Below, in pieces: positions 6,130-24,584 of a DNA stretch of 55,293 bases (position 1 is the stretch's first letter; every line of letters begins with the position of its first letter). The translations under genes were made by a program, and so were the position numbers. The notes below the pieces were generated by a model. It was not told the origin of the DNA. It searched no databases and saw only the letters and a program-made list of their open reading frames with translations. Source of the DNA: an uncultured Candidatus Poseidoniales archaeon (GTDB lineage Archaea; Thermoplasmatota; Poseidoniia; Poseidoniales; Thalassarchaeaceae). The DNA lies in contig CAZRCY010000002.1 of NCBI GenBank assembly GCA_964598735.1, positions 1-55,293 of the forward strand, in the 5' to 3' direction.

Positions 6130-9100
6130 TCACAACCACTGAGCTAGTTCTGAAGCATTCTTGGCTACTCCAACGCCTAATGTCTCTTCTAGTGCTCTAG
6201 CAAGTAATGTAAAATCAGAATCTCGAGTTGCTACAATAACTGAGCCAATATTAGGATATGTAGATGAGGCAAGATGGGTGGCAGTTCTCATTATATCTAA
6301 ATCTCCAGATTCTGGATATATACTATCTCCATTAAATTCTGTTCTTTTATCCGCGGTTCCACGTTGATCTTTGAAATCTGTAACCCTTCTGTATATTTCA
6401 CTGTGAGATTGAATAAACGACTCGACAGCATTCAATTCACCTTCTACAGCATCTAAGAATTCTGATGATGATGGTTCCCAATCATGGAAGGACTCGAGAA
6501 TCTCGTAATGCATTTTCTCTAAAATTTCTGACGTGATTGCCTCACGATACGCATCTAGATTGATGTGTTGATTAGAGCCTGAAAACAGAGAAAGTGCTCG
6601 TTCAGGATCAAATTCACCGGTATCACTGCTACCAATCTTATTCATGAACTCGTGTTTAGCGGTCAAGGGTACATAGGTTCTAATACGCCGTTCAAGACGT
6701 AAATGACGAAGATTATGGTGAAATAAAAGGGACGAATTTGGATTAATAATTCCATTTCGATCCATAGCCATTTTTCTAAGAACTGCAGCGGATAAAGCAT
6801 CTATCAGTAAATTTGTATCAATGACTACCAACGGAGCTAAATCTACTGAACTTAAAATACGACGAGATCGTATTGGGATATTAGACTCGTGTTTTGAATA
6901 CAACGTTTTCATTGATGCAATCAATCTTGCCTTTTCCATACGACCAAGATAATTGCATGCCGATACAGCATGTTCTAGCATCCCTAATGCACGGATAGGA
7001 TCTTCCGATGCTATTTCATTGGCAATACTGAATAATTCCAAAGGTTCTTCTTCATCCTTGATAGCCTCTCGGAATCGATTCTCGATCCTTGTTCTTCCGG
7101 ACTTATTCTTTTCGCGGATGTGATTTAAAGCTGCACGAACACGGCCTACAAATGGTTCCTCAGGAAGATTACGTTTTGTAGGGTAAGTCATCAAAGACTC
7201 AATCAGATCTTCTTTTCTCCTATTCCTTTCTCTTTGGGATGAATATGCCGAATCTTCTTCTTCAGTAGATATATTTGGAACTTTTTCGTCCACGAAATCA
7301 AGTATAGCCTTTCGTGACATATCTCTGGTCTTTGAATTTCTTTTACCTCGATTTTGTTGTTGAATTTCAGCAGAATGAGAGACTTGTAAATACAATTTGA
7401 ACCTTGAGGTAATGGTAGTGGCTAATTCTTCATGACTGCTCAGTAATGCTACTGCTTCAGACCATCCTTGTGCCTGAGCAAAACCAATTAATGATTTACG
7501 ATATAAGCGAGTGGCTATCTCAAAATCACAATGTGGTTCAGCTTGAAAACGTGGGGCCGCTTGTTTGTATAAACGAGCTGCTTCTCTGTAACGTTGCGTA
7601 TTTACTTTAATTGCAGCATTTGCAACAGGAGACCATTCAGAACCGGGTCTATTTTCTTGTAACCACGAAACGAAACTTTGAGATGCAATTTCATGCTCTA
7701 GAAGCATTCGTTGTACTTGATTGAGAAAGATAGCTGAGAAATTATTTTCAATAATCTGATTAAGTAACTCTGATGCATGTTTTTTACGACTACTATCACT
7801 CATCTGAATTTCGTTATTTACCCTATTCATTCTCAGGAGATTCACAATTGCTTGAAATAATGAAGATTCTAAACTGGAAAGATTGGCTGTTGCTATTGAT
7901 TCTTCGAGAGTGTCAATTCTCTTTTCACTAACTAGTCCATCTCCTCCATCCATCAATGCTCGACGTGTTTCACGCAAAACCTCTGAGCCGGACTCTGGTA
8001 ATCGTCCAAGAAGTTCGTCCAGGTTTGCATTGCCCCCATCTAATAAACGAATCAAGGCAGCTTCATGTATGCTCAGGAATTCAGGTATATCTGAAGAAGT
8101 AATCGAGTCGTGAGCTTTGGCTCTTTCGTTCTGAAGCCATTGTATTGTCTCTTCACCAATATTTGCAGGTGCTAATGCACTACAAAGTAGAACTGAATAG
8201 GGTCTGGTAGAGCCATCTACCTTTGAGGAATACAATATCAATGATAAGGAAAAAATGTCTACCTGAGTTGAGAGTATCTCTATGGCTGAATCGAGAACAT
8301 CTGGTGGAAGTACTGTTCTTTCATTTGCAATTAATTTTGAACATGCGAGACGAATTAACATTGGATATTTTGAATCTGTTACAATTTCTGACCAAGTAAT
8401 CAAAGAAAAGTCTGGTGCTTTATCGACTAATCTGGTAATCAATAATTCGTTATCTCCTGCTAACGATGAGGCTTGGATAAATGACTCTTCATCATCAATT
8501 CTTGTTTCTAAAACAAGTTCTGTTGCTGATTCTAAATCCCCAGTTTCTGCGACCTGCTTAACCAGCATCCAACGAAGAGTATCAGATACGGGTTCCCCAT
8601 GTAATTCTAAAAGCATCATTCCTGACTCAATCTTTTTTGAATCGATTTGTCTATCGATAGGAGGGTTTTTCCATGCTTCCAAAAGCATAACAATTGACAG
8701 AGGATCTTTTCCTGTGACTTCTGAACAGTGATCCCAAGACGAACTATCCCCTGACCTAAGCCTAGTTAAGGCAATCATATCGTTTACTGATTCCATTAAT
8801 ATCTTATTTTCACTTTCAATTGACTGGAGAATTTTCAATGATTTTTCTAATTCACCGGCTGCTATCAAAAGATATGCCCCCAGCAACATGTGTTCTGGAA
8901 TTGTGGAGGAAAGAAGTTCTTCGGGGATACTCTTCTGAATTTGATTCATTCTCATCTTTTTGCCTTGAAGTCCTTTAGATAAACGTTGAATTTTGAGAAT
9001 TCCTGCTGAGCCAAGATTTAGTGTTGGGAATTTTTCTAACAAGTCACCAAGCGATGAAACGTCCACTGGGTCGATTCTAGAACCTTTTATCCAACTCTCA

Positions 9101-9600
9101 TCTACTTCTACAGACTGATTTTCAACTTCCAGAGAGGGAAATGCTCCTAATTGAGCGATTAATGGGCATTCTCGAGATGCTATTGACCAAACTGAGTGAA
9201 TGCCGGAAACGCAATCGTTTCTCAATTGGTCGATATTCAAATCAAATTTTGAGTCCCAGTTTTTTGGATCCTTACCCTTGTGAATCAGTAATGTTGCAAG
9301 TTGGAATGCTGGTAAGAAATTTCCAGAAATTACTTGAGGAGGAGAGGGTAGAGAATCCTCAATTCCAGAAAATCCTTTAGCACCTCGTCTTCGACCTCCC
9401 CGTCTTCTAGTTACCTTGACCTTTACTTCCTCATCTGGATTAACTGGTTCCTCTTTTCGAAGAATTGTAATAGCAATTGATTTCCATGGTTTTTCTAATA
9501 AATTGAAGGCATCGTTCCCAATTAGAGTCCTAATTCGTGTATTAGGATCGTCTCCAGAACGGAGGGCGTTTTCGATTGCTTCCTTGAGGCGGTCCTCCAT
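6130..9600 (-). CDS. Large helical-repeat protein with C-terminal split PIN-like nuclease domain
   Basis: ORF of 1171 aa as given in the track. The preferred ATG at 9600 (MEDRLKEAIE) has GGAGGG about 7 nt upstream. The C-terminus carries PIN-type acidic motifs VVIDTNLLIDAL, ESGDLDIMRTA and VIVATRDSDF, separated by a long insert. There is an Arg-rich patch, RRRGGRRRGAKG. The rest looks alpha-helical/TPR-like. Confidence 0.55.
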   Translation of the reverse strand: MEDRLKEAIENALRSGDDPNTRIRTLIGNDAFNLLEKPWKSIAITILRKEEPVNPDEEVKVKVTRRRGGRRRGAKGFSGIEDSLPSPPQVISGNFLPAFQLATLLIHKGKDPKNWDSKFDLNIDQLRNDCVSGIHSVWSIASRECPLIAQLGAFPSLEVENQSVEVDESWIKGSRIDPVDVSSLGDLLEKFPTLNLGSAGILKIQRLSKGLQGKKMRMNQIQKSIPEELLSSTIPEHMLLGAYLLIAAGELEKSLKILQSIESENKILMESVNDMIALTRLRSGDSSSWDHCSEVTGKDPLSIVMLLEAWKNPPIDRQIDSKKIESGMMLLELHGEPVSDTLRWMLVKQVAETGDLESATELVLETRIDDEESFIQASSLAGDNELLITRLVDKAPDFSLITWSEIVTDSKYPMLIRLACSKLIANERTVLPPDVLDSAIEILSTQVDIFSLSLILYSSKVDGSTRPYSVLLCSALAPANIGEETIQWLQNERAKAHDSITSSDIPEFLSIHEAALIRLLDGGNANLDELLGRLPESGSEVLRETRRALMDGGDGLVSEKRIDTLEESIATANLSSLESSLFQAIVNLLRMNRVNNEIQMSDSSRKKHASELLNQIIENNFSAIFLNQVQRMLLEHEIASQSFVSWLQENRPGSEWSPVANAAIKVNTQRYREAARLYKQAAPRFQAEPHCDFEIATRLYRKSLIGFAQAQGWSEAVALLSSHEELATTITSRFKLYLQVSHSAEIQQQNRGKRNSKTRDMSRKAILDFVDEKVPNISTEEEDSAYSSQRERNRRKEDLIESLMTYPTKRNLPEEPFVGRVRAALNHIREKNKSGRTRIENRFREAIKDEEEPLELFSIANEIASEDPIRALGMLEHAVSACNYLGRMEKARLIASMKTLYSKHESNIPIRSRRILSSVDLAPLVVIDTNLLIDALSAAVLRKMAMDRNGIINPNSSLLFHHNLRHLRLERRIRTYVPLTAKHEFMNKIGSSDTGEFDPERALSLFSGSNQHINLDAYREAITSEILEKMHYEILESFHDWEPSSSEFLDAVEGELNAVESFIQSHSEIYRRVTDFKDQRGTADKRTEFNGDSIYPESGDLDIMRTATHLASSTYPNIGSVIVATRDSDFTLLARALEETLGVGVAKNASELAQWL

Positions 9601-9709
9601 CCTTCGCCCTCCAACGAAGGGGTGCGCTCGTCCAGCATACATCAACGATTCGCCATAAAATGAGACATAAGACCCTCAGAATGATGTCCTAAGTCCCCGT
9701 CCAAGGAGT

Positions 9710-14373: not shown

Positions 14374-16635
14374 GTGAGTAGCCCTTCGACATCCGGTCGA
14401 AGGAGGACTACAGCAGGAGGTGGACAAATGGCAAGACGCGCGACTAGCACAATGAAGCAAGCCAGTATCAGCGAATTCTTTGAAAAGAACAAACATTTTC
14501 TAGGATATGATTCGGTACAAAGATCGATAATTACAGCTGTCAAAGAGGCTATCGATAATTCATTAGATGCTTGTGAAGAACATAGAATATTACCTACAAT
14601 TTCAATTGAATTACGACGTATACCAAACAAAACTGATAGGATATTGATGATAGCACAAGATAACGGACCAGGAATTCCTGCTAAGTCAATTGAGAAGGTT
14701 TTTGGTTCACTATTATTTGGGTCTAGGTTTCATACTATCAGACAAACTAGGGGGCAGCAAGGAATTGGTATTACTGGAGTTGTAATGTACAGTCAGTTAA
14801 CGACGGGCAAAACAACACATGTGGTTTCAAAAATTGCAAAAGATGCAACTGCATTGAAAATGGATATTGGCTTAGATACAAAAAAGAATGCTGCAATTGT
14901 CTCTAATCGAGAGAGAATTCATGGATTTGTCGATCATAATGGCTTACCTGTTGAACATGGCCTTCGGATCGAAGCTCCTATGAAAGCGAAATTTCAACGG
15001 GGGAAAAAAAGTGTAGGTCAGTATCTCAGAATGACTGCTATAGTTAATCCTCATGCTACGATACGTTTTCATGCATACAATGAAGAGAATGAATTGATAG
15101 ATAGTTTCGTCTCCGAAAGGGTCACTGACAGGTTGCCACGTCCGGTAAGAGAAATTAAGCCACATCCACATGGAATCGAAATTGGTTCATTGAATAGATT
15201 GCTAAGGGATTCTTCTGAAAGAAACATGAGAGGTTTTTTGCGCCATACATTTTCTGGAATTCCGATGAGAGCGATGAAGGAAATTCTTGAACGGTCTGAT
15301 GTGGATCAAAAAATCGCTCCTGGAAAAGTTACTCCGGAAGCATCTCAACAAATTCTTACATCGTTCAACGAGGTCAGACTGATGCCTCCCCCAACTGATT
15401 GTTTATCTCCAATCGAAGATTTGTTGATCAAAAAGGGACTAGAAAAGGGAGTTGATTCTGCCTTTGTCTCTACACTTACCAGAGCTCCTGGTGTAGCAAA
15501 TGGTAATCCATTTCAAGTTGAGGTCGGACTAATTTATGGAAATTCAGATGTATCTGCAGATGGACCTATCGAAGTCCTAAGATTCGCAAATAGAGTGCCT
15601 CTGATGTATCAACAAGGAGGGTGTCTTCTTACCAAAGGGATAGAATCCGTGAGTTGGAAAGGATATGGATTAGATCAACCAGGAGGTAAGGGGTTGCCCA
15701 AAGGAGCAGCTACGATATTGGTTCATCTTGCCAGCACGAATGTTCAATTTACCTCAGAAGCAAAAGAAGCAGTTGCTGAAAATGAAGTAGTAATGACTGA
15801 AATCCGTAAGGCATTACAGGAAATTGGTAGGCATTTGAAAAACCATAAAAAGAAGAGTGCTCAAAAAGCGAAAACAAGAGAAAAATTCGAATTAGTTAAT
15901 GAAATTCTACCTGCTATCGCCACAAAAGCATCTAGTCTCTTAGGTCGCACAGAGCCTGATTTAAGCCCCATTATTACAAAAATAATGAATGCTGTATTTT
16001 GTGAGGATAATGTTGTATGGGATAAGGAGGCTAAATTACATAGATGTGAGATAAAAATTCACAATTATTCCGCTAGGCCTAGAGCATATTCAATCCTTGC
16101 CCAATATCCTGAAAAAGATGGTGTAGAAATCATTGAGAATGAATTAGGAGGAAAGAGAGAAGTTAAAGGAATATGGTGTTGGAAATTAGAAACTATTCCT
16201 CCGAACGAAGAAGGAGTAATCCGATTTGCTCTGAAAGGCCTAGCACATAATGACTGGAATAGTACGGAGGTTTTCTTCCGTGGCGCTGGCGATATAATCG
16301 GGGCATCCAAAATAGATGAGGAAATTTTGATTGAAATTCAAAAAGAAGAAGAAAGAGCGTTGGAAGTAGCCAAAGAACAGGCTTCGATGATAGCAGAGGA
16401 TGCTATGGAGTCAGATCAAGATAATTCTGGTGACCTTAATGAATTGGAATTAGCAGATGCCATGAAAGGTGTGTTAGGAAATTCAATACCTCAAAAATTA
16501 CCTGAAGAGATTATCGATATACATGACCTAGATAATAGTGGAACATTAGATCAAAGTGAAGTTGAAAAGGCTATTTTACAATCTAACGAACCAAAAGAAT
16601 GGAGATTTGATGAATATGAGGAGAATGATGAATAA
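14374..16635 (+). CDS. top6B: DNA topoisomerase VI subunit B with C-terminal acidic EF-hand-pair extension
   Basis: GHKL/Bergerat motifs: EFFEKNKHFLGYD, AVKEAIDNSLDA, QDNGPGIP and GQQGIG. The track starts at GTG 14374; ATG 14428 (MARRATS) is an alternative start. The tail carries DQDNSGDLNELE and DLDNSGTLDQSE. Confidence 0.9.
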   Translation: MSSPSTSGRRRTTAGGGQMARRATSTMKQASISEFFEKNKHFLGYDSVQRSIITAVKEAIDNSLDACEEHRILPTISIELRRIPNKTDRILMIAQDNGPGIPAKSIEKVFGSLLFGSRFHTIRQTRGQQGIGITGVVMYSQLTTGKTTHVVSKIAKDATALKMDIGLDTKKNAAIVSNRERIHGFVDHNGLPVEHGLRIEAPMKAKFQRGKKSVGQYLRMTAIVNPHATIRFHAYNEENELIDSFVSERVTDRLPRPVREIKPHPHGIEIGSLNRLLRDSSERNMRGFLRHTFSGIPMRAMKEILERSDVDQKIAPGKVTPEASQQILTSFNEVRLMPPPTDCLSPIEDLLIKKGLEKGVDSAFVSTLTRAPGVANGNPFQVEVGLIYGNSDVSADGPIEVLRFANRVPLMYQQGGCLLTKGIESVSWKGYGLDQPGGKGLPKGAATILVHLASTNVQFTSEAKEAVAENEVVMTEIRKALQEIGRHLKNHKKKSAQKAKTREKFELVNEILPAIATKASSLLGRTEPDLSPIITKIMNAVFCEDNVVWDKEAKLHRCEIKIHNYSARPRAYSILAQYPEKDGVEIIENELGGKREVKGIWCWKLETIPPNEEGVIRFALKGLAHNDWNSTEVFFRGAGDIIGASKIDEEILIEIQKEEERALEVAKEQASMIAEDAMESDQDNSGDLNELELADAMKGVLGNSIPQKLPEEIIDIHDLDNSGTLDQSEVEKAILQSNEPKEWRFDEYEENDE

Positions 16636-17735
16636 TGTCTGAAGCAAAAAATAGAGAAGAAGTGATTCAGAGTTTGAATGAAGTTGTAGAAGAAATGCAT
16701 GACCGAATGTTAAAGGGTACTCCTCCAACAATGACCTTACCTGTACGAGCAAAAACAAATATAGAGTTTGATCAAAGATTAGGTGTTTACAAATATGGTA
16801 AGAAGAAAACAATACGTGATGCTAGTAGTCTAGGATCTGCTAGACAATTACTTCGTGCTTTACATGTGATTGAATTTATTGAAGAGATGATAGATAGTGA
16901 AAAATCATCTACACTCAGAGAAATGTATTACATTTCAGAGGGCTGGGGATTAGGGAAGTTTGATAATCAGAATGGAAGCAATAATCTTGCTGAAGATCTT
17001 GAAATCGTGACTAAGTGCATGAGAGAAGATTTCAAATTGCGACCCGAAGAAGATGGTGCTCGAATGATTGGAAATGTTACCATTGAAGAAAGAAACAGAC
17101 GTGGGGAATGGATGTCAATAAATTGTCGAGATGACGTAGGAGATTCAGGTTATGGTTTACCATATAATGTAGAGCCAGAAAAAATTAGACTAATCGATGA
17201 AGACATTGACTACATTATGGCTATAGAAACTGGTGGAATGTTCGATAGGTTGGTAGAAAATGGATTTGATGAAGATTCTAGGTGCGCATTAATTCACCTA
17301 AAAGGCCAGCCTGCAAGATCTACGCGTAGAATGATTAAGCGTATGTCAGAAACGTGGAATAAGCCTGTTATGGTTTTCGCTGACTGTGATCCTTGGTCAT
17401 TCAGAATTTTCGCTAGTATAGCATACGGTGCAATAAAAACCGCGCATATTTCCGAATATCTAGCAACGACCGGAGCAGAATATCTCGGAATTACAGCAGA
17501 TGATATTGAAGCATATGATCTACCAAGTGACAAATTAACTCCAAAGGACATTGAAGCGTTAAAGGCAGAGCTCAGTGATCCGAGATTTTCTACGGGAGCT
17601 TGGCAAGACCAGATTAATATGATGTTGGAAAATGGAAAAAAGGCTGAACAACAGTCTTTAGCCAAATATGGATTGGATTACGTTACTGATGAGTACCTTC
17701 CTCAAAAATTAGCAGAATTTGGTCTAGGTGGATAA
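16635..17735 (+). CDS. top6A: DNA topoisomerase VI subunit A (Spo11 family)
   Basis: The start overlaps the top6B stop (ATAATG). Motifs: [10 protein letters not shown] (catalytic Tyr region) and the Toprim [10 protein letters not shown] ... DCDPWS. Confidence 0.9.
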
Positions 17736-17766
17736 TTCAGCATACAACACTAGGGGTTTCATTTTC

Positions 17767-18642
17767 ATGACAAATGAACAAGAAAAGAAAAAGCCGTTGG
17801 GAAAATGGCTGGCCTTCATAGCAATGGGTTTGATTACAGTATCATTTATTTCATTTTCAAATTCAATGGATGATATTGAAAATCTTGTTGATCCTGGACA
17901 AAATAATTCTGGAATAATTGACCCCGATTCAAGCAAGGAAATTATGCTCGAAGATAATCGTATTTACACCATTTTGCGGATTGTTGAAAATATTAATGAT
18001 GAAGCTAAATTAGATTTAGAAATTACAAATTCTAATGATAAAATGATAGACATAGATGAACCTACATGGATGCAGCCACAAAGAACCGGAGAAGGTGGAA
18101 GTGTAGTTTATGACCCTGTAGGAACTATCTCTTTGACTCAATCAGGAGAGTATAATTTCAAAAATAGTAATTCTACATCTGCAATATATGTTGTAGATGA
18201 TCAGTCTGTTGACCTACAAGCATTTCAAGAACCAGGGATTTTAATTGCTTTTATTTCGTGTTGTTTTGGACTGATGATACTGCCCCTTTCACTTATAGTT
18301 CACTTATTTGTCAGAAGGGAAAAAGTCGAACAGAAAGTTATTATTCAAAAAATGCCAATGGATCGTATACCTACTACAGATGAATTATTTTTAATTCGCG
18401 AAGGTAAACTAGATTCGCAAAAAATACAAGGAACGAAACCGAAAAAATCTATTCCTCCCCCATTCACAGATATGTCGAATAAAAGAGTACATGCTCCTGC
18501 TTACAAGACACAGCCTGATTTTGAAGATGATAAAGAAACTAATCAGGGAATTGGTGCTGCAAAGAAAATCTCAAAGGCAGAAATCGAAAAACAAAACGAC
18601 CCCAAAGTGGATGAAGACTGGCAGACCTGGGATTCGGGTTGA
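17767..18642 (+). CDS. Membrane protein with two TM segments, unknown function
   Basis: ATG at 17767 is preceded by AGGGG; the track ORF starts at GTG 17728, overlapping the top6A stop. An N-terminal TM and a second TM (LIAFISCCFGLMILPL) are followed by a Lys/Asp-rich tail. Confidence 0.5.
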   Translation: MTNEQEKKKPLGKWLAFIAMGLITVSFISFSNSMDDIENLVDPGQNNSGIIDPDSSKEIMLEDNRIYTILRIVENINDEAKLDLEITNSNDKMIDIDEPTWMQPQRTGEGGSVVYDPVGTISLTQSGEYNFKNSNSTSAIYVVDDQSVDLQAFQEPGILIAFISCCFGLMILPLSLIVHLFVRREKVEQKVIIQKMPMDRIPTTDELFLIREGKLDSQKIQGTKPKKSIPPPFTDMSNKRVHAPAYKTQPDFEDDKETNQGIGAAKKISKAEIEKQNDPKVDEDWQTWDSG

Positions 18643-18710
18643 TTCAATCTTCGTTCCCAACGAGTTTTTACGAGAGGGGTGACTACCTAACCACAGGTTG
18701 GGATGTTATA

Positions 18711-19445
18711 ATGGACTTTGATCGTGCTATTGAAATCCTAAGTAACCCTACACGTCGTGAAATTTTGAAGCGATTAGTCCGTGAACCTCACTATCCCCTT
18801 CAACTCTCTGAACACCTAGATGTAAGTCAACAGGCTATTGTAAAACATCTTAATGTTCTGGAAGAGAATGGATTTGTTGAGTGTGAAAAGGTCGCGTCTG
18901 AAAAGGGGGGTCCTCCAAAAAAAATTTACACAGTTCAACAATCATTCAGTCTTCGAATGGATCTAGGACCAGATTTGTTTAGAATGAAACATACACCATT
19001 ACCTAAAGGAAGTCCGGTTAATCTTTCATTATCAAAATCTATGTCTGATTCTGCAGTAAAAATAGCTAATCAAATCAGTAGAAGAAGGAAGATGTCCATT
19101 TCAGAAGGGGCAGGATATATTGCTCATATCCAAGAAATGTTAGACAATATAGATGCAGAGAGGGATTCATTGGTTGCTCTTCATCAGCATGTATTGAAAC
19201 GTGTATCAAAAACAGTTGATGGTGAATTTGAATCATACAAAGAAAGATCTATTGTCCATACCATCTTGGAAGACCCAAGCAGACCATTAGATCTGGATAG
19301 AGTAGCAAGAGACTTGTTAATTCATTCAAGGGATATGCGAATGGTCATTGACGGAATCAGAGGACATTTAGCAAATACAAATACGGAAGAAATTTTCATG
19401 CCAGCTGACTCTACAACTCCTCTTCCTTGGTGGATACAAGGATAA
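18711..19445 (+). CDS. ArsR-family winged-helix transcription regulator with long C-terminal domain
   Basis: wHTH segment NPTRREILKRLVREPHYPLQLSEHLDVSQQAIVKHLNVLEENGFVE. The ATG at 18711 is preferred over the TTG at 18639. Confidence 0.7.
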   Translation: MDFDRAIEILSNPTRREILKRLVREPHYPLQLSEHLDVSQQAIVKHLNVLEENGFVECEKVASEKGGPPKKIYTVQQSFSLRMDLGPDLFRMKHTPLPKGSPVNLSLSKSMSDSAVKIANQISRRRKMSISEGAGYIAHIQEMLDNIDAERDSLVALHQHVLKRVSKTVDGEFESYKERSIVHTILEDPSRPLDLDRVARDLLIHSRDMRMVIDGIRGHLANTNTEEIFMPADSTTPLPWWIQG

Positions 19446-19451
19446 GGAAAA

Positions 19452-22400
19452 TCAGAATCTAGTTTCTTCATCAAGTCCTTGTAAAAGGCTACTTTGCTCA
19501 GCGACCCTATCCAATGCTTCCTTTCTTCGAGAAATCATCATCAGACCTGCGACTCCCAACAATCCAATTGTAGCAGCCATGATAATAGTTGGAACTGACC
19601 ACTTACTGACAACAACCATCGCCACATCAAGAACTGGGTTGTTCGACTGTAATTTTTCATCAACAGAAAGATAGTTGTCATCATCGCTGACTTCAACAAT
19701 ATTCAGTTCAGGATCAATTACAACAACAACGCTGTCACTACCTGCTGTAACTGGATAGAGGAGAGTGATTGTCACTCCGTCGTCTGTATTGTCACTTGGC
19801 ATTAATGCACCTATAACTCTACGATATACTACATCTTCTTCTTCACAACCCTCAGAACGGATGTCATCTTCATCCCCAACACACAGAATGATGTTGATAT
19901 CTGTAGCATGTACATTTCCTGTATTTTGAATTGTTACCTGTACAGGGATCATTTCGCCAACAGCAGCTGAGGCTTGTTCTTCAGAAATATCTACGCCACC
20001 AATGAAAACTAGATTTGGAGCCCTTAATCGAAGAGTGAGAATTTGTTCATTAGTATCGCACCCAAGATTGTTGTCTGCGAGACCATCATTGTCAGTATCG
20101 ATAGTACATGAGTCGACCCATTCTGGAGTTTCGTCATCATCTCCGCCATCTGCAGAACTACCAAAATCAGACAAAACTTTGATTCCAACATTTCGATTGC
20201 CTAACGCAGCATCAGAACCAACATTCACTATTGCAACTATTTGGACAGTAGTATATGCTGGCATGGGAGGGAAATACCATGTCCCGGAAAAGACATCATA
20301 ATAACAATCAAATTCAGGCTTCTCATCAGTGGAATTAACGTCTGAACATGCAAATTCAATTGGATATTCTGTCTCGAATCCATCCAATAGGGCAAATTCA
20401 ACTGCGTGTGGTGTTGCCCATCCTGCAAGTGCGTTCATTCCTGGCTCAGAATCCCAATTACCGTCACCTTTCTTGGTATGGTTATGCAATGTTGGGGTGT
20501 CGGCTACGTTTCCATTATTTGTTAAATTCATGATAAATCGAACGGTTCTTCCCGGTGCAGTAGTTTTCACAGCGCTTTCAACATATGGATCAAGTGTGAT
20601 TTGCATGTCATGATATTCATTTACATTAATTGTTAATTGAATTACGTCTCGAAGACGTGTGCCTTCCCATGCTTCCTCTGAGAATATTGAGATAGTTACC
20701 TGATATGTGCCTGCGGCTACTTGATCAGGAGTATCAACATGAACCATTACTGTTTGATTTTCATCACGCTGTAATTCTGACATGTCTGAACGGAAAATTT
20801 CTACATTCCAAGGTTGAGATAATCCATTAGAATCTGAAATCGAGGTGATTCTCATATCATAACGATCAGGTCCATTTCCTCCATTCATTATGTCAATAGG
20901 AACCGCCCAGGTTTCTCCGGGATTCATATCATTTTCAAGTGATTCTGTGTTAGCATCCAACTCATAGACGTGTTTTACCATTGTCGAAAGTGTTACTTCA
21001 TCTGATACCTTAGGCGAGCCCTGTAAATACGCTTTGATCTTTACAGCTGGACCTATTCCTGCATCTGCATTCGCTGGAGCGCAAACCGTTGCAAGAACAT
21101 CATAAGGAACCCCGGTTTGTGACCAAAATCGAGGGACTGTGGGGTCATATCGAGTTTCAACAGTGTAATCTGGAGCGTTTTTGAAATCTAATTCAACATA
21201 CCAATTTTCCTGACGCCATTGATTCAAATTCATTGTTTCATTTCTTTCCTCAGGACCACCGAGTACAGCGAATATTAGATGGCCTGGAGCGAAATTCTTC
21301 TTCACCTTGATTGTATATTGTGCACAACCTGCATCATCTGCTAAATCGGATTTTAACTCCCCTGGAAGTACTTCTTCTGTTCTATCAAATATCTCAAATT
21401 CAATGTTACCAGACGATCGAATTGATACGTTTATCCAAAGTTCGAGGACATCATATGTCCCCTTCTCTACAGACTTTACAGGTTCCCCAGTGGACCATCC
21501 TTTAACAAAGACAACCCAAGTTCCTGGCTCTTGAGTTGTTGGAACGTTCACTTCAAGATTTTTGGTTACAGAAGCGCCCGGTTCTAACGAAACTGTGAGG
21601 GGGAATTTAATCCCCCAGCCATATGGCAATAACCATTCTTGCTGACCTTCTAATGTATTTGGATCATAAAACTGGAAGGTATCGTAAACGTTACCAGTGT
21701 TGGTGATTGTGATTGAGAAAATTGCCGTTCCTCCTTGCTCAATGTCGCTCTGAGTATGACTAGTATCCAATTGAATGCCATGAACTACATCCATGAGTGT
21801 ACTTGTCAGTCTATCGCTACGAATAGCAGGATCCTTGTAAGAAATTGCTGAAACAATAATGTTAGCAACTTCATCCTCATTTGCTTGGTAAATTGAGGGG
21901 GCAATTACTCGCATGTAAATCTCAACCTTCTCTCCACCAGCGAGATAAATCGGAGTATCTGGGAAAATTGTTGTATGGTTGTTGGAGAAGTAAACTGTAG
22001 CTGACCAGTTCAAAGGAATTCCGCTCAAATTAATTGAGAAGGTATCAGCGACCAAATCAGGAGGTCCCGGTGTAGTATTGTTTACTGTGAGATTGTACAT
22101 CGTTTGTTCACTTGGTTCAATTACGTGATAGAATGTTTCTCCTTCTTGTAGCCCCACTTCTACTTGGCCTGTGAGCACATGAACATAACATAGAGTATAC
22201 GTATTCTGATTTGATTCCTCATTACATTTGTTAGTGTCAGACCATGCAATGTGAGCACCACTACCTAAATCATTAGCAAATGCAGGGGGTTGCCCTAGTT
22301 CAGGTGAATTACCAGAATTAGGACCTAATTTATCTGATTGCCATGTAGAAACTACAGTAGGCTCCCATGGATCTAAAACCGCTGCTGCTATCGAATTCAA

Positions 22401-24584
22401 CGGCCAAGATGGTTTATCGTTGGTATGATTCAGTCGGGCGTACATAATAGCTTCACCCTGCGTTGCATTGCTGTTATCGAGCCAAGTAATGTGGACATTG
22501 TCTCGTGCATCAGTTAGGATTGCTGGCATATATGATGATGGAGAATATGGAGTCCCTTGTGGTATTCCATTCGGCCCTTCGAAGTCAGAAATCCTAGTAT
22601 CTACAATTTGTTTGATTCCGTACGATGGTAATCCCTCTTCAACACCATCCCAAGTAGCAGCACCACGTAGTCTTAGACGGGAATAAAAGACTTCGTAATT
22701 CACATTTTTCTCGAATCCATATCCTCTACCATCCATCCATGTTAGGTGAGTATTTCCTTGACTGTCCACTGCAATCGATGGGTGGAAACTAAATGCGTCG
22801 TCTAATGTAATTCTTGTATCGTTAACTACAACCAAATGACCGTATCCATTTGAATCCATTTCTGGGCCTATATCTTCAGTATATGCATTTCCAGATGTAC
22901 TGGTTGCAGATGTACCCCTTGTCCACCCAGGAGATGGGTTATCGAGTAAGGCATGAGGAGCCAATACTGTCATGAAAATTTCACGTGAGTTATTTGTGGC
23001 TAGGTACACCATAGCCTCAACCAGTAATTGCATCTGTTGTGAACCGCCGCCGGAAGCAGGGAAATTGTAAACTTCGCCTCCTGCATCCGTGTTACGGATT
23101 GTAGAACCAGGACATATTCTAGGATTTGTGTTAACTACTCCATTCGGACAGTTGGCCAAATCAGACATATGAGACTGGATTTGTGTTCCTCCGCCCCATG
23201 TGCTGCCTGCCATTGGAACTGGGACTATGCCCGCTCGAACGCAAGCATCGTGAGCCTCGTTGATAGACGCAGTGTCATCCGCTTGCTGAGCAGGATCTCC
23301 ATTTCTAGGACCTTCGTCTGATATTGGAATTACAATCTTTGTAGCATTAGGATTCCATTTGTGATCGGCAGATGTAGGTGGGTTACCTGGAACGTTTCCA
23401 GCTGCATCTTTCCATGAGAGACATGCCCATGTAGATGATGGTCCCCAATCTTCGCCAGAACTTCCAGTGACTGCGCCACCATTGAATATGAAATTCTGAA
23501 GTTTTCTAATTCCTCCACTATCATCTCCGGGAAACTGACCGAGATGGGTGTTTCGAGGTCCTTGAGAACCGGACCCTCCAGTTTGATATGCTGTAGAACA
23601 GGTATTGCTTTGTCCAGCGGAAGGGATACCATATCCAAGAATTGCATAGATTGTCTCGTACACTGTGATATTAGCATCTTCTAACATTGGCTTGATTCCT
23701 CGGAAATATCCTCCACTGCTAAAACTACCACCATAGAATACAGTACATACGTCTGCCCATTCAGAATACATAGAACCAGAGGTGTCGATCGGTACAACCA
23801 TCTCTACCTTTCCTCCTCTTGTATCATCCCAAACAATCTGAACATAATCATCAGCGTCAACAGCAATATCTGGATGACCTTTATGTCCAATAACAGGAGT
23901 AATCATTGAATCGTCAATTGCTGTTATACCTGCGGTTCCATCAAATTCAATCATAGAATAGTAGATTTGAGGCTGGAAATAGAACTTCTCCAAAGGATCG
24001 AACGAATCCTCCCAGACAATATGTGCATTGTCCATCGAATCAACAGCTATCGCTGGCCAATCTCTGTCTTGTTGTCGTTGACTTACAATCATATCATTAA
24101 CAACTGAAATTACGCTTTCATCAGCTGCAGTACCATCTTGAGGATGTAAAGAGGGGTCTAGGACTGTATATTTGATAGCATGTTGACTTGATTTATCGGT
24201 CCAAGTAACGTGAACTCTGTCTTGGCTATCAATTGCAATATCGGGATGCCAAGCACGATGGATCCCAGCATTTGAAATCTGCGTAGCATCGATCAATGGA
24301 TCTGCTTGACCATCACCATCGGTGTCCGCCCTAGGATCGAGCATTGTGTAAAACAAATGCTGCGTATTTCTACTCCAAACAAAGTGAATGTTGCCTTCAC
24401 TGTCAGCTGCCATAGACACCATTCTTTCATTCATAGGTCCTCCATCGACAACACGAACTGCGTCTGTAATTACTACCTCGGCGGCCTCTACTTCGTCAGA
24501 GGGTACAATCAATGTCGTGCTCAAAACCATCAAGATTGTGAGCATTAGGCTATTGGTCTTCATTCTGTAAGTCATGGTATACAC
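19452..24584 (-). CDS. Giant (1710 aa) C-terminally anchored surface protein: repeat propeller, vWA-like insert and multiple Ig-like (CARDB/DUF11-type) domains
   Basis: Signal peptide at the N-terminus. Seven repeats of the N-x-H-[IV]-x-W-x-D type. A MIDAS-like DTSGS motif lies at 23772-23786. Repeated TNTGN/NNGN/QNTGN beta-sandwich motifs follow. A C-terminal TM (IIMAATIGLLGVAGLMMI) precedes a short cytoplasmic tail. Confidence 0.8.
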   Translation of the reverse strand: MYTMTYRMKTNSLMLTILMVLSTTLIVPSDEVEAAEVVITDAVRVVDGGPMNERMVSMAADSEGNIHFVWSRNTQHLFYTMLDPRADTDGDGQADPLIDATQISNAGIHRAWHPDIAIDSQDRVHVTWTDKSSQHAIKYTVLDPSLHPQDGTAADESVISVVNDMIVSQRQQDRDWPAIAVDSMDNAHIVWEDSFDPLEKFYFQPQIYYSMIEFDGTAGITAIDDSMITPVIGHKGHPDIAVDADDYVQIVWDDTRGGKVEMVVPIDTSGSMYSEWADVCTVFYGGSFSSGGYFRGIKPMLEDANITVYETIYAILGYGIPSAGQSNTCSTAYQTGGSGSQGPRNTHLGQFPGDDSGGIRKLQNFIFNGGAVTGSSGEDWGPSSTWACLSWKDAAGNVPGNPPTSADHKWNPNATKIVIPISDEGPRNGDPAQQADDTASINEAHDACVRAGIVPVPMAGSTWGGGTQIQSHMSDLANCPNGVVNTNPRICPGSTIRNTDAGGEVYNFPASGGGSQQMQLLVEAMVYLATNNSREIFMTVLAPHALLDNPSPGWTRGTSATSTSGNAYTEDIGPEMDSNGYGHLVVVNDTRITLDDAFSFHPSIAVDSQGNTHLTWMDGRGYGFEKNVNYEVFYSRLRLRGAATWDGVEEGLPSYGIKQIVDTRISDFEGPNGIPQGTPYSPSSYMPAILTDARDNVHITWLDNSNATQGEAIMYARLNHTNDKPSWPLNSIAAAVLDPWEPTVVSTWQSDKLGPNSGNSPELGQPPAFANDLGSGAHIAWSDTNKCNEESNQNTYTLCYVHVLTGQVEVGLQEGETFYHVIEPSEQTMYNLTVNNTTPGPPDLVADTFSINLSGIPLNWSATVYFSNNHTTIFPDTPIYLAGGEKVEIYMRVIAPSIYQANEDEVANIIVSAISYKDPAIRSDRLTSTLMDVVHGIQLDTSHTQSDIEQGGTAIFSITITNTGNVYDTFQFYDPNTLEGQQEWLLPYGWGIKFPLTVSLEPGASVTKNLEVNVPTTQEPGTWVVFVKGWSTGEPVKSVEKGTYDVLELWINVSIRSSGNIEFEIFDRTEEVLPGELKSDLADDAGCAQYTIKVKKNFAPGHLIFAVLGGPEERNETMNLNQWRQENWYVELDFKNAPDYTVETRYDPTVPRFWSQTGVPYDVLATVCAPANADAGIGPAVKIKAYLQGSPKVSDEVTLSTMVKHVYELDANTESLENDMNPGETWAVPIDIMNGGNGPDRYDMRITSISDSNGLSQPWNVEIFRSDMSELQRDENQTVMVHVDTPDQVAAGTYQVTISIFSEEAWEGTRLRDVIQLTINVNEYHDMQITLDPYVESAVKTTAPGRTVRFIMNLTNNGNVADTPTLHNHTKKGDGNWDSEPGMNALAGWATPHAVEFALLDGFETEYPIEFACSDVNSTDEKPEFDCYYDVFSGTWYFPPMPAYTTVQIVAIVNVGSDAALGNRNVGIKVLSDFGSSADGGDDDETPEWVDSCTIDTDNDGLADNNLGCDTNEQILTLRLRAPNLVFIGGVDISEEQASAAVGEMIPVQVTIQNTGNVHATDINIILCVGDEDDIRSEGCEEEDVVYRRVIGALMPSDNTDDGVTITLLYPVTAGSDSVVVVIDPELNIVEVSDDDNYLSVDEKLQSNNPVLDVAMVVVSKWSVPTIIMAATIGLLGVAGLMMISRRKEALDRVAEQSSLLQGLDEETRF

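Follow-up and report, generated by a model that had tools for sequence, protein, structure and literature searches.

Topoisomerase VI genes and the layout of subunit B

The window, by which we mean the whole stretch of 55,293 nucleotides analysed, belongs to an uncultured Candidatus Poseidoniales archaeon of the Thalassarchaeaceae. Its forward strand carries adjoining genes for both subunits of DNA topoisomerase VI. The features of this locus are given below, with residues of subunit B numbered on its 753-aa reading.

14374-16635, + strand: top6B ORF, 753 aa from GTG 14374 and probably 735 aa from ATG 14428; stop codon TAA at 16633-16635.
14415-14430, + strand: Shine-Dalgarno-like AGGAGGTG (14415-14422), 5-nt spacer and ATG 14428-14430, which is M19 of the long ORF.
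14428-15945, + strand: canonical Top6B body, aa 19-524, with GHKL ATPase, H2TH and transducer with a long stalk helix (Pfam, PRK04184, M. mazei match, AF2).
15946-16308, + strand: predicted all-beta CTD of the M. mazei (Ig-like) type, aa 525-645 (AF2 and structural alignment).
16309-16413, + strand: acidic connecting helix, aa 646-680, net charge -8 (AF2 helix at aa 649-680, conservation, charge).
16414-16464, + strand: EF hand 1, with loop DQDNSGDLNELE at 16414-16449 (aa 681-692) and exiting helix ELADAMKG, aa 690-697 (pattern, AF2, conservation).
16465-16500, + strand: inter-hand linker, aa 698-709, with a GxLG motif and a short helix at aa 700-704 (AF2, conservation).
16501-16584, + strand: EF hand 2, with entering helix EEIIDIH, aa 710-717, loop DLDNSGTLDQSE at 16525-16560 (aa 718-729) and an exiting helix to aa 737 (Pfam, AF2, conservation).
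16585-16632, + strand: C-terminal acidic/aromatic tip NEPKEWRFDEYEENDE, aa 738-753, net charge -6 (predicted disordered, pLDDT below 50).
16635-17735, + strand: top6A, 366 aa (TOP6A-Spo11_Toprim E=5e-57, Topo_VI_alpha, TP6A_N).

The ORF at 14374-16635 encodes DNA topoisomerase VI subunit B (Top6B). It scores 588.9 bits against the NCBIfam PRK04184 equivalog (cut-off 274) and 460.5 against TIGR01052 (cut-off 380.7), contains Topo-VIb_trans (E=2e-51) and matches HATPase_c (GHKL ATPase). M. mazei Top6B is a match both by sequence (2q2e_B, E=7e-137) and by Foldseek comparison of the modelled protein (9o0g_D, E=2e-52 over 618 columns; 2q2e_B, E=4e-42). The initial annotation had named a 753-aa Top6B. 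Its identity stands, but its length hangs on the GTG start, and the true start is probably the ATG at 14428, giving 735 aa, because AGGAGGTG lies 5 nt upstream of that codon. The consensus of the relatives' Top6B alignment also begins at this methionine, residues 1-36 of the 753-aa form have an AF2 pLDDT below 50, and the NCBI cluster holding 750-aa Top6B calls also lists 732-aa versions. The stop codon of top6B and the ATG of top6A overlap (TAATG), which makes co-translation of the two genes as an operon probable. In a metatranscriptome check, none of the sampled sequence words was found in the listed RNA runs.

Alignment with Methanosarcina Top6B, suggested at the outset as a way to place the end of the canonical protein, located that end. 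In the long-form M. mazei protein with its Ig-like CTD (2q2e, 9o0g), whose gene likewise adjoins top6A, the GHKL, H2TH, transducer and CTD regions align with the window's Top6B at 37% identity over 618 columns. The structural alignment reaches all 603-606 modelled residues of M. mazei Top6B, CTD included. The modelled M. mazei chain ends before the tail and therefore holds no counterpart of it, whereas the window protein runs on for ~108 residues (acidic helix, EF pair and tip). The tail had been placed directly after the transducer, which turned out to be incorrect. In the AF2 model the stalk helix (aa 471-523) is followed by the all-beta CTD, with strands between aa 541 and 636 (pLDDT 74-89), and then by a 32-residue helix (aa 649-680). 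Pfam Top6b_C matches the CTD weakly (E=0.014, 16 bits, under the cut-off of 28.6). The last ~110 residues of Top6B are thus, in the predicted model, an appendage on the putative Ig-like CTD that comprises an acidic helix, an EF-hand pair and a disordered tip. The net charge of the whole tail is -25 and that of the Top6B body is +17.

The EF-hand pair of the acidic tail

The two 12-residue loops first noticed at 16414-16449 and 16525-16560 are present exactly as described, on the + strand of the top6B ORF. Both DQDNSGDLNELE and DLDNSGTLDQSE fit a PROSITE-style EF-hand pattern, including the hydrophobic position 13, which is stricter than the D-x-D-x-S-G-x-L-x-x-x-E consensus. Each loop offers oxygen ligands at positions 1, 3, 5, 9 and 12, with Gly6 and a hydrophobic residue at position 8. 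In the stop-free translation of the window (22,497 aa), only these two loops fit the PROSITE-style pattern. The start of loop 1 lies 37 residues from the start of loop 2, and the corresponding distance in the N-lobe of calmodulin is 36 residues.

Profile searches with the tail alone detect EF-hand_1 at 27.9 bits (cut-off 25.4) and EF-hand_6 at 25.7 (cut-off 25), while the pair model EF-hand_7 reaches 26.3, under its cut-off of 30. Within full-length Top6B, the three models score 21.3, 19.4 and 18.5, all under their cut-offs. The best Pfam EF-hand stretch covers aa 711-734 in EF hand 2. EF-hand_6 is found at E<=1e-3 in the tails of 12 of the 13 relatives (best 1e-8), and the profile evidence is borderline in strength but consistent. 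By phmmer, both loops align with the EF lobes of CDPK and calmodulin (1s6i, E=1e-5). A search with a profile of the tail returned 1588 proteins at E<=1e-3; the five large ones examined are multi-EF-hand proteins that look eukaryotic and share generic EF similarity only.

Structure prediction gives two confident helix-loop-helix units joined by an inter-loop beta-bridge. The helices around the loops span aa 649-680, 690-697, 710-717 and 727-737, the pLDDT of the EF lobe in the tail-only AF2 model is 82-93, and DSSP assigns the bridge to aa 687-688 and 725-726. When the EF lobe was compared with the PDB by Foldseek, the best 50 matches were all EF-hand proteins (calmodulin, troponin C, centrin, CDPK), with TM-scores up to 0.63 when normalised to single-lobe targets and a probability of ~1; the E-values are only ~1e-2 because the domain is small. 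AF2 places the C-terminal tip in no confident contact (pLDDT below 50).

The window's lobe shares with those of calmodulin, troponin C and CDPK the 12-residue loops, the ligands at 1, 3, 5, 9 and 12, Gly6 and the hydrophobic position 8, and it shares, as predicted, the doubled helix-loop-helix with its beta-bridge. It differs from a calmodulin-type sensor in being a single lobe on the C-terminus of a topoisomerase, not a free four-hand protein. Its first entering helix is formed by the last turns of the 32-residue acidic connecting helix and fits the canonical hydrophobic pattern poorly (Ser at -1, Asp at -5). An invariant His stands immediately ahead of loop 2, and Ca2+ binding by the window's lobe is putative.

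A dockerin-like module had been considered as an alternative. Dockerin loops also match DxNxDG. Weighed together with it was the possibility that DxDxSG arose by chance in acidic sequence of low complexity, since a tail rich in Asp, Glu and Ser makes such matches likelier. Type I dockerins consist of two ~22-residue repeats, each a loop with one helix (an F-hand) that lacks an entering helix and carries Asp or Asn at position 12. The window's tail instead has predicted entering helices, an invariant Glu12 and loop starts 37 residues apart. No dockerin Pfam family matches the tail even at E<=10, and only EF-hand families are found in the 13 tails at E<=1e-3. Type I dockerins are moreover secreted, cohesin-binding modules, in contrast to a cytoplasmic Top6B whose gene probably shares an operon with top6A; on inspection, the N-terminus of the window's Top6B shows no hydrophobic signal. 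When the tail was shuffled 200,000 times with its composition preserved, one loop or more arose at a frequency of 0.002 and two loops never, and the loop positions are conserved across species. The shuffles and the cross-species invariance exclude a chance motif, the dockerin comparison is rejected, and we consider the two together extremely improbable. Collectively, the HMMs, the fold predicted by AF2 and recognised by Foldseek, and the conservation in close relatives bear out a canonical EF-hand pair fused to the C-terminus of Top6B and confirm, at the level of the predicted fold, a genuine pair of the calmodulin-lobe type.

Conservation, decay and origin of the module

The survey of orthologues revealed that close relatives of the window's Top6B keep the tail. 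The module was found in 12 GTDB species-representative genomes and at 27 metagenome loci, and in every case it sits on Top6B of the Thalassarchaeaceae (Marine Group II). Both loops are intact in 11 of these 12 representatives, and the remaining one (L005) has ambiguous bases in loop 2. The metagenome scan gave 29 confirmed matches, 27 of them Top6B C-termini and two unrelated. Four independent marine metagenome runs yielded Logan contigs across 16000-16900 that span the CTD, the tail and top6A without indels or joints. This continuity and the recurrence of the architecture in the 12 genomes and 27 loci rule out an assembly artefact or a frameshift fusion.

Although identity to the window's tail is only 38-75%, loop positions 1, 3, 5, 8 and 12 do not vary across 15 tails, and in EF hand 2 the invariant set comprises positions 1, 3, 5, 7, 8, 9 and 12. 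The module lies within an acidic tail whose other parts are variable. Outside the ligand set, the Met of DAM, the GxLG motif and the His before loop 2 are also invariant; the two linker glycines are G54 and G57 in the numbering of the tail alignment. The motif KIDEEILxEIxxEE in the first half of the connecting helix is kept in all Poseidoniales Top6B. Synonymous codon variation is seen at Ser5, Leu8, Glu12 and the Asp residues of the loops, and pairwise omega (dN/dS) ranges over 0.05-0.40 in the loops and 0.17-0.43 in the lobe. These codon comparisons show purifying selection on the ligand residues. With an omega of 0.2-0.4, the lobe changes at a far higher rate than the CTD (0.02-0.03).

Two clades differ in how well the module is kept. 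In clade A, which holds the window, both loops are intact in every readable sequence, comprising 12 species-level genomes and more than 20 metagenome loci. In clade B the module erodes: Gly6 is replaced in four members (P0011, P0012, P0014 and P0015), the EF lobe is fully decayed in three (P0020, P0021 and P0025), and the module is lost in a further three (P0022, P0028 and P0032). HMM scores fall in parallel from 89 to 36, 22 and 13 bits and then to none, and the complete losses are nested among EF-bearing sequences. Most Poseidoniales Top6B proteins have a plain acidic tail without the module. Judging by this distribution, the EF module is dispensable in evolution. The graded decay and the nested losses would suit a drifting relic, in which an EF fold gained once is now neutral baggage heading for loss. 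The intact loops throughout clade A, where ligand codons turn over synonymously at a loop omega of 0.05-0.40, argue against such drift, and we regard it as very unlikely. Relics of the lobe in EF-less tails were rejected, as the clade A HMM gives at most 5.6 bits there, and the likeness of FDAVRxRSGL in the EF-less tails of P0016, P0024 and P0031 is unsupported.

A single gain with A and B as sister clades was also rejected. Bootstrapped neighbour-joining on the Top6B core joins them in 0 of 200 replicates and groups clade B with the EF-less P0017 and P0018 in 200 of 200. Because the core tree never joins the two clades, the module may have been lost many times, or the tail may have been transferred long ago. 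In all genomes Ser5 is encoded by TCN in loop 1 and by AGY in loop 2, which makes it unlikely that one hand was recently duplicated in tandem. No donor of the EF tail was found by word search, profile search or metagenome scan: the word-based search returned Top6B fragments only, and among the 150 matches listed from the exhaustive profile search, P0007 is the sole full-length Top6B and the remaining whole-profile matches are fragments of 55-110 aa.

The extreme C-terminus was compared with the archaeal PIP consensus QxxLxxFF (PMC4929162). Most Poseidoniales Top6B tails end in a PIP-box-like RQxxLxEW(G)DE after an acidic linker. In the relatives' RQTGLGEWGDE, the Q, the L and the first aromatic residue match the consensus and the second aromatic is absent. 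In the window's own subclade the Q and L are replaced, and the tip NEPKEWRFDEYEENDE does not match Qxx[LIM]xx[FYW][FYW]; a PIP box was thus rejected for this tip.

Possible calcium control of topoisomerase VI

From the predicted fold and the conservation, we infer that the lobe binds metal and regulates Top6B. Our preferred reading, at a probability of roughly 0.55, is that a Ca2+-binding EF lobe, set in an acidic tail (-25) with a conserved aromatic/acidic tip, switches the interactions of the tail with calcium. Each loop would bind one Ca2+ through Asp1, Asp3, Ser5, the backbone carbonyl at position 7, Asp/Asn9 and a bidentate Glu12. Binding would order and partly neutralise the tail, may open a hydrophobic cleft in the lobe, and would alter the contacts of the tail and the aromatic tip. 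In cis, the tail and tip may target the basic surface by which the +17 body binds DNA (Stalk/WKxY, H2TH); these surfaces of Top6B are basic and are required for DNA binding and activity (PMC5922973). In trans, the tail or tip may contact a partner, for example PCNA. Overall, the activity or recruitment of topo VI would come to depend on free Ca2+. Consistent with such control, Ca2+ has a direct effect on topo VI chemistry, seen as more double-strand cleavage than with Mg2+ in an M. mazei Top6 mutant (PMC13040014), and a modulating Ca2+ site is reported from a type IIA enzyme (PMC3479174). Points against it are the Pfam scores under cut-off in full-length Top6B, the atypical first entering helix, the tip's lack of a confident predicted contact, the dispensability of the module and the rapid evolution of the lobe.

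The lobe could instead be a structural module, always loaded with Ca2+ or Mg2+, that serves the acidic tail as a folded spacer or for solubility and takes no part in signalling. A structural metal site would need a conserved fold and ligands too, related lineages live without the module as they would without a non-essential embellishment, and omega is above that of the catalytic body. Many prokaryotic EF-hand proteins also have buffering or structural roles. However, micromolar Ca2+ affinity is typical of canonical loops that combine Glu12 with four acidic ligands, so at typical prokaryotic resting Ca2+ the loops would be largely empty, which favours a switch. The invariance of residues beyond the ligand set (the Met of DAM, GxLG and the His before loop 2) further suggests that a specific surface is maintained. 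We consider a purely structural role possible but lean against it.

A fuller version of the preferred calcium switch is a Ca2+-regulated topo VI in this Marine Group II clade. The EF sensor would move the tail and tip between auto-inhibition, in which they touch the basic DNA-binding surface of the enzyme, and a state in which they are free or bound to a partner. Cytosolic Ca2+ transients would in this way be coupled to decatenation, supercoil relaxation or replisome recruitment. We propose this scheme tentatively, as its full form is on the doubtful side.

In type II topoisomerases, Ca2+ supports cleavage but religation is poor, and seawater contains ~10 mM Ca2+. As a special case of regulation, the lobe may sense an influx of seawater Ca2+ and restrain the enzyme, or mop up Ca2+ near the DNA gate, so that double-strand breaks are avoided. 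The host is marine, and the CTD that bears the tail sits beside the Top6A/DNA-gate end of the enzyme, the M. mazei holoenzyme being the best structural match. In a M. mazei Top6 mutant, Ca2+ occupies the TOPRIM site and gave more double-strand cleavage than Mg2+ (PMC13040014). Such a guarding role is purely inferential; two sites per subunit are too few to buffer a real influx, and sister lineages live in the same seawater without the module. It is therefore unlikely.

Acidic and calcium-binding elements have counterparts on other type II topoisomerases. The acidic C-terminal tail of E. coli GyrA, a subject that Tretter and Berger are said to have treated in 2012, is reportedly auto-regulatory and modulates DNA binding and coupling. 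It is likewise a very acidic tail on the CTD of a type II topoisomerase subunit; unlike the window's, it is disordered and has no metal-binding module. In M. tuberculosis GyrA, an EF-hand-like Ca2+ element in the linker beside the CTD of this type IIA subunit was proposed to regulate activity (Karkare et al. 2012, PMC3479174). According to its authors it is a single non-canonical motif without helix-loop-helix, and it is internal (PMC3479174). Cation sensing on a type IIB topoisomerase had been taken as undescribed, and our literature search found no paper describing an EF hand on Top6B or joining topoisomerase VI with EF hands; because of the M. tuberculosis GyrA site, calcium on a type II topoisomerase is not wholly unprecedented (PMC3479174). 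Calmodulin-like EF-hand dyads serve in bacteria as add-ons to enzymes and membrane proteins, and the fusions described in the parts of that survey consulted include 7TM domains, haem oxygenase, NOS, NADPH oxidase, sulfatases and similar proteins, with no topoisomerase or archaeal example found there (Schaffer et al. 2020, PMC7016017).

In conclusion, the EF-hand tail on Top6B is a new domain architecture built from known parts. Type IIB topoisomerases, and likewise the Spo11 machinery by which meiotic recombination is initiated, have their archetype in topo VI, whose regulation is little understood; an EF lobe hard-wired to Top6B suggests a direct second-messenger or environmental-ion input. 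The host, one of the most abundant archaea in surface seawater, lives in 10 mM external Ca2+, an ion that can itself turn type II topoisomerases into DNA breakers. The series from intact through eroded to lost modules provides natural material on how folded modules arise in, or vanish from, disordered acidic tails. If the module binds metal only structurally, the finding would be a modest note on domain architecture. If topo VI is indeed regulated by Ca2+ in this clade, no earlier EF-hand-controlled topoisomerase would be known, and archaea would offer one of the rare concrete examples in which intracellular Ca2+ signals act on DNA metabolism.

The top6B gene and the anatomy of its product

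The ORF at 14374-16635 encodes DNA topoisomerase VI subunit B (Top6B). It scores 588.9 bits against NCBIfam PRK04184 (cut-off 274), carries the Pfam domains Topo-VIb_trans (E=2e-51) and GHKL ATPase, and matches M. mazei Top6B (2q2e_B) with E=7e-137. The nearest database proteins all bear the plain name 'DNA topoisomerase VI subunit B' and come from MAGs labelled Thalassarchaeaceae, Poseidoniales or Euryarchaeota, namely Marine Group II archaea.

14374-16635, + strand, top6B, 753 aa from GTG (PRK04184, Pfam and M. mazei matches)
16414-16449, + strand, EF loop 1, aa 681-692, DQDNSGDLNELE, read from the sequence
16525-16560, + strand, EF loop 2, aa 718-729, DLDNSGTLDQSE, read from the sequence
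16585-16632, tip of the Top6B tail
16635-17735, + strand, top6A (Top6A subunit), Toprim, all-beta and TP6A_N domains

The initially annotated length of 753 aa holds for the ORF from the GTG at 14374, from which residues are numbered here, but the protein probably starts at the ATG at 14428 and comprises 735 aa, in which case every residue number drops by 18. This ATG follows a strong Shine-Dalgarno-like AGGAGGTG (14415-14422) after a 5-nt spacer, the consensus of the relatives' alignment begins at its Met, and residues 1-36 of the long ORF have an AlphaFold2 (AF2) confidence below 50. The NCBI protein cluster with 750-aa calls also lists 732-aa versions.

The top6B stop codon overlaps the top6A ATG in TAATG (16633-16637). 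The start of a 304-aa ORF without Pfam match (17728-18642) shares 8 nt with the end of top6A (17728-17735) and this ORF is overlapped by an ArsR-type HTH gene (18639-19445); the four genes may form an operon. The neighbours of top6B are ordinary chromosomal genes, including those for a SPOUT methyltransferase, the ArsR-type regulator and a large, probable CARDB surface protein, as well as purL and uvrA. Two very large ORFs lie on the minus strand of the window. The 1171-aa ORF (6130-9645) has no Pfam match at E<=1e-3, and the 1710-aa ORF (19452-24584) is probably a surface protein, judging from weak CARDB, DUF7507 and NPCBM-associated matches found only near its C-terminus.

In the AF2 model of full Top6B, built on an alignment of 39 relatives, the body ends in a long stalk helix (aa 471-523), after which comes an all-beta domain whose strands lie within aa 541-636. 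Foldseek aligned this model with the whole chain of M. mazei Top6B (618 columns versus 603-606 modelled residues, 37% identity, E=2e-52), so the canonical long-form protein, including a predicted Ig-like C-terminal domain (CTD), stops at around aa 645 and the tail lies beyond it. The tail is C-terminal of the transducer, as first described, but the CTD intervenes between the two. Solved Top6B structures have no counterpart to these last ~108 residues. A 32-residue helix (aa 649-680) leads into loop 1, which is followed by a helix (690-697), a short helix (700-704), a third helix (710-717), loop 2 and a final helix (727-737), and aa 739-753 are predicted to be disordered. Beta-bridges of one residue pair (aa 687-688 and 725-726) lie in the second half of each loop, and the pLDDT is 72-87 across aa 650-735. 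The tail has a net charge of -25 (acidic helix -8, EF lobe -11, tip -6), and the GHKL-H2TH-transducer body one of +17.

EF-hand identity of the tail

Both loops of the initial annotation were confirmed exactly in the sequence, and they are the only two matches to the strict EF-loop pattern in the 22,497 aa stop-free translation of the window. When the acidic tail was shuffled 200,000 times with its composition kept, one loop appeared at a frequency of 0.002 and two loops never. The tail stretch recurs in 20 or more marine metagenome runs, which come from several studies, and contigs of four of these runs cover the CTD, the tail and top6A with a few substitutions but neither indels nor joints, which excludes an assembly or frameshift artefact as the origin of the fusion.

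Searched alone against Pfam, the tail passes the cut-offs of EF-hand_1 (27.9, cut-off 25.4) and EF-hand_6 (25.7, cut-off 25), and the pair model EF-hand_7 stays below (26.3, cut-off 30); all EF-hand scores fall under the cut-offs when full-length Top6B is the query. The tails of 13 relatives matched EF-hand_6 (12/13), EF-hand_1 (9/13) and EF-hand_7 (8/13) at E<=1e-3, with a best E of 5e-9, and matched no family outside EF-hand. In phmmer alignments with PDB sequences, both loops are in register with EF lobes, namely those of soybean CDPK (E=1e-5), calmodulin and CaBP1 and that of an EF protein from a cyanobacterium. The loop starts are 37 residues apart, against 36 in the calmodulin N-lobe. 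A tail-only AF2 model has a pLDDT of 82-93 over the lobe, and its best 50 PDB fold matches are all calmodulin, troponin C, centrin, CDPK and similar proteins (probability ~1, TM-score up to 0.63 against single-lobe targets); their E-values of only ~1e-2 are as expected for a small domain of 70 residues. Helix-loop-helix geometry occurs twice in the model, in line with the helix-prone flanks first noted. Together, the sequence matches and predicted structures uphold the proposed EF-hand pair at the Top6B C-terminus and identify within the tail a folded, paired, canonical EF-hand lobe. The alternative first raised, a dockerin-like segment, is rejected: the tail matches no dockerin model even at E<=10, Glu occupies position 12, an entering helix is predicted for each hand, and the enzyme that carries the tail is cytoplasmic.

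Conservation and history of the module

The tail is kept in close relatives, being found in 12 GTDB species-representative genomes, 11 with both loops intact and one with ambiguous bases in loop 2 (L005), and in 27 metagenome loci, where it sits on Top6B with the CTD motif wherever the contig is long enough. Among 15 aligned tails with 38-75% identity to that of the window, positions 1, 3, 5, 8 and 12 of loop 1 and 1, 3, 5, 7, 8, 9 and 12 of loop 2 are invariant, as are the Met of DAM, the GxLG motif and the His directly preceding loop 2, which are not ligands; loop positions 2, 4, 10 and 11 are free to vary. The ligand codons vary synonymously (Ser TCT/TCA/TCG, Leu CTT/CTC/TTA, Glu GAA/GAG, Asp GAT/GAC). 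Pairwise omega (Nei-Gojobori) is 0.05-0.40 for the loops, 0.17-0.43 for the lobe and 0.02-0.03 for the CTD, with deeper pairs saturated at synonymous sites. These patterns indicate that the metal-ligand residues are kept by selection. The Ser5 codon differs between the hands in every genome, being TCN in loop 1 and AGY in loop 2, which makes a recent duplication of one hand into the other unlikely.

Two metagenome loci, L037 (MDSV01241027.1) and L034, have an EF-lobe stop-to-stop frame of just 90-94 aa without the CTD motif. The L034 match begins 42 bases from the contig end; in L037, 2.5 kb of sequence lies upstream of the short frame, so its top6B may contain a frameshift, stop codon or sequencing error. 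Another locus, L008 (NZVR01000136.1, a 13.8-kb contig), stands in a MAG that carries the label of a planctomycete, Blastopirellula sp. NAT61. Its Top6B EF tail is of the Poseidoniales type and almost the same as the L007 tail, and the contig is probably archaeal and mis-binned into a bacterial MAG.

Two groups within the 120 closest Top6B clusters carry the module, and NCBI labels members of both Thalassarchaeaceae. Clade A comprises the window protein and database relatives P0001-P0010, all with both loops intact. Clade B (P0011-P0015, P0020, P0021 and P0025) forms a decay series in which Gly6 of one loop becomes Glu, Lys or Asp, then ligands are lost, and then the module is absent; the EF-less P0022, P0028 and P0032 nest within it. 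This erosion shows the module to be dispensable. For clade A, a reading of the lobe as a drifting relic is unlikely, as the selection signal speaks against it. A clade A HMM scores 73-89 bits on clade B tails, 36, 22 and 13 bits on the decayed ones, and at most 5.6 bits on all remaining tails; the tails of all other Poseidoniales Top6B proteins are comparable in length, acidic and of low complexity. In neighbour-joining trees of the Top6B core, clades A and B are sisters in 0/200 bootstraps and clade B joins the EF-less P0017 and P0018 in 200/200, which leaves either a single old gain with many complete losses or an ancient tail transfer between lineages. No donor protein was found by word search, profile search of representative proteins or metagenome scan. 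Against 1.8 billion representative proteins, the tail profile gave 1588 matches at E<=1e-3, including five large multi-EF-hand proteins of eukaryotic appearance.

A possible link between calcium and topoisomerase VI

The EF lobe is placed between the conserved acidic helix and the conserved acidic/aromatic tip, suspended from the CTD at the Top6A end of Top6B. Good Ca2+ sites have Asp1, Asp3, Ser5, Asp/Asn9 and Glu12 as ligands, and from this ligand set we infer that each loop would bind one Ca2+. Binding would order and partly neutralise the tail, the lobe may open, and contacts of the tail or tip may thereby be altered. G-segment binding and activity depend on the basic Top6B surfaces Stalk/WKxY and H2TH, and charge reversal there abolishes or strongly reduces relaxation (PMC5922973); the -25 tail beside them would be a natural competitor for that surface. 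Ca2+ also has a direct effect on topoisomerase VI chemistry: in a mutant M. mazei enzyme, double-strand cleavage is greater with Ca2+ than with Mg2+, and the TOPRIM site is occupied by Ca2+ (PMC13040014). For a type IIA enzyme, GyrA of M. tuberculosis is reported to have a tuning Ca2+ site, although that site is single and non-canonical, unlike the canonical pair of the window Top6B (PMC3479174). With these three points from the literature, a link between Ca2+, the tail and topoisomerase VI activity is plausible. In the main rival explanation, the lobe is purely structural, permanently loaded with metal and not involved in signalling.

Comparison of the tip (window 16585-16632) with the tails of P0004-P0032 and of L004-L039, the genome and metagenome loci, revealed that many or most Poseidoniales Top6B tails, whether EF-bearing or EF-less, finish in RQxxLxEW(G)DE, a partial PIP-box (Qxx[LIM]xx[FWY]). 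The window protein and its closest relatives have NEPKEW[RK]FD[EQ][YF]EExxE instead, and tails without RQxxLxEW(G)DE still have an aromatic residue amid acidic ones close to the end. The pattern points to a short linear motif through which the tail could bind a partner, PCNA for example, or the enzyme itself. In P. abyssi, topoisomerase VI subunits co-purified with NucS, a PCNA-binding nuclease (PMC4929162), which we regard as a lead only.

The component parts, the EF lobe and an M. mazei-type Top6B with CTD, are already known. Their combination was not known to be described, and our literature search bears this out: a full-text search for 'topoisomerase VI' and 'EF-hand' found no description of an EF hand on Top6B, a 2024 survey of topoisomerase VI distribution contains neither 'EF-hand' nor 'calcium', and passages from a survey of calmodulin-like EF fusions in prokaryotes list other partners. 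Automated Pfam tables mark an EF-hand on P0007, P0009 and P0010, so the feature was detectable yet unremarked. A demonstration that Ca2+ regulates topoisomerase VI would give this EF-hand module considerably greater weight.
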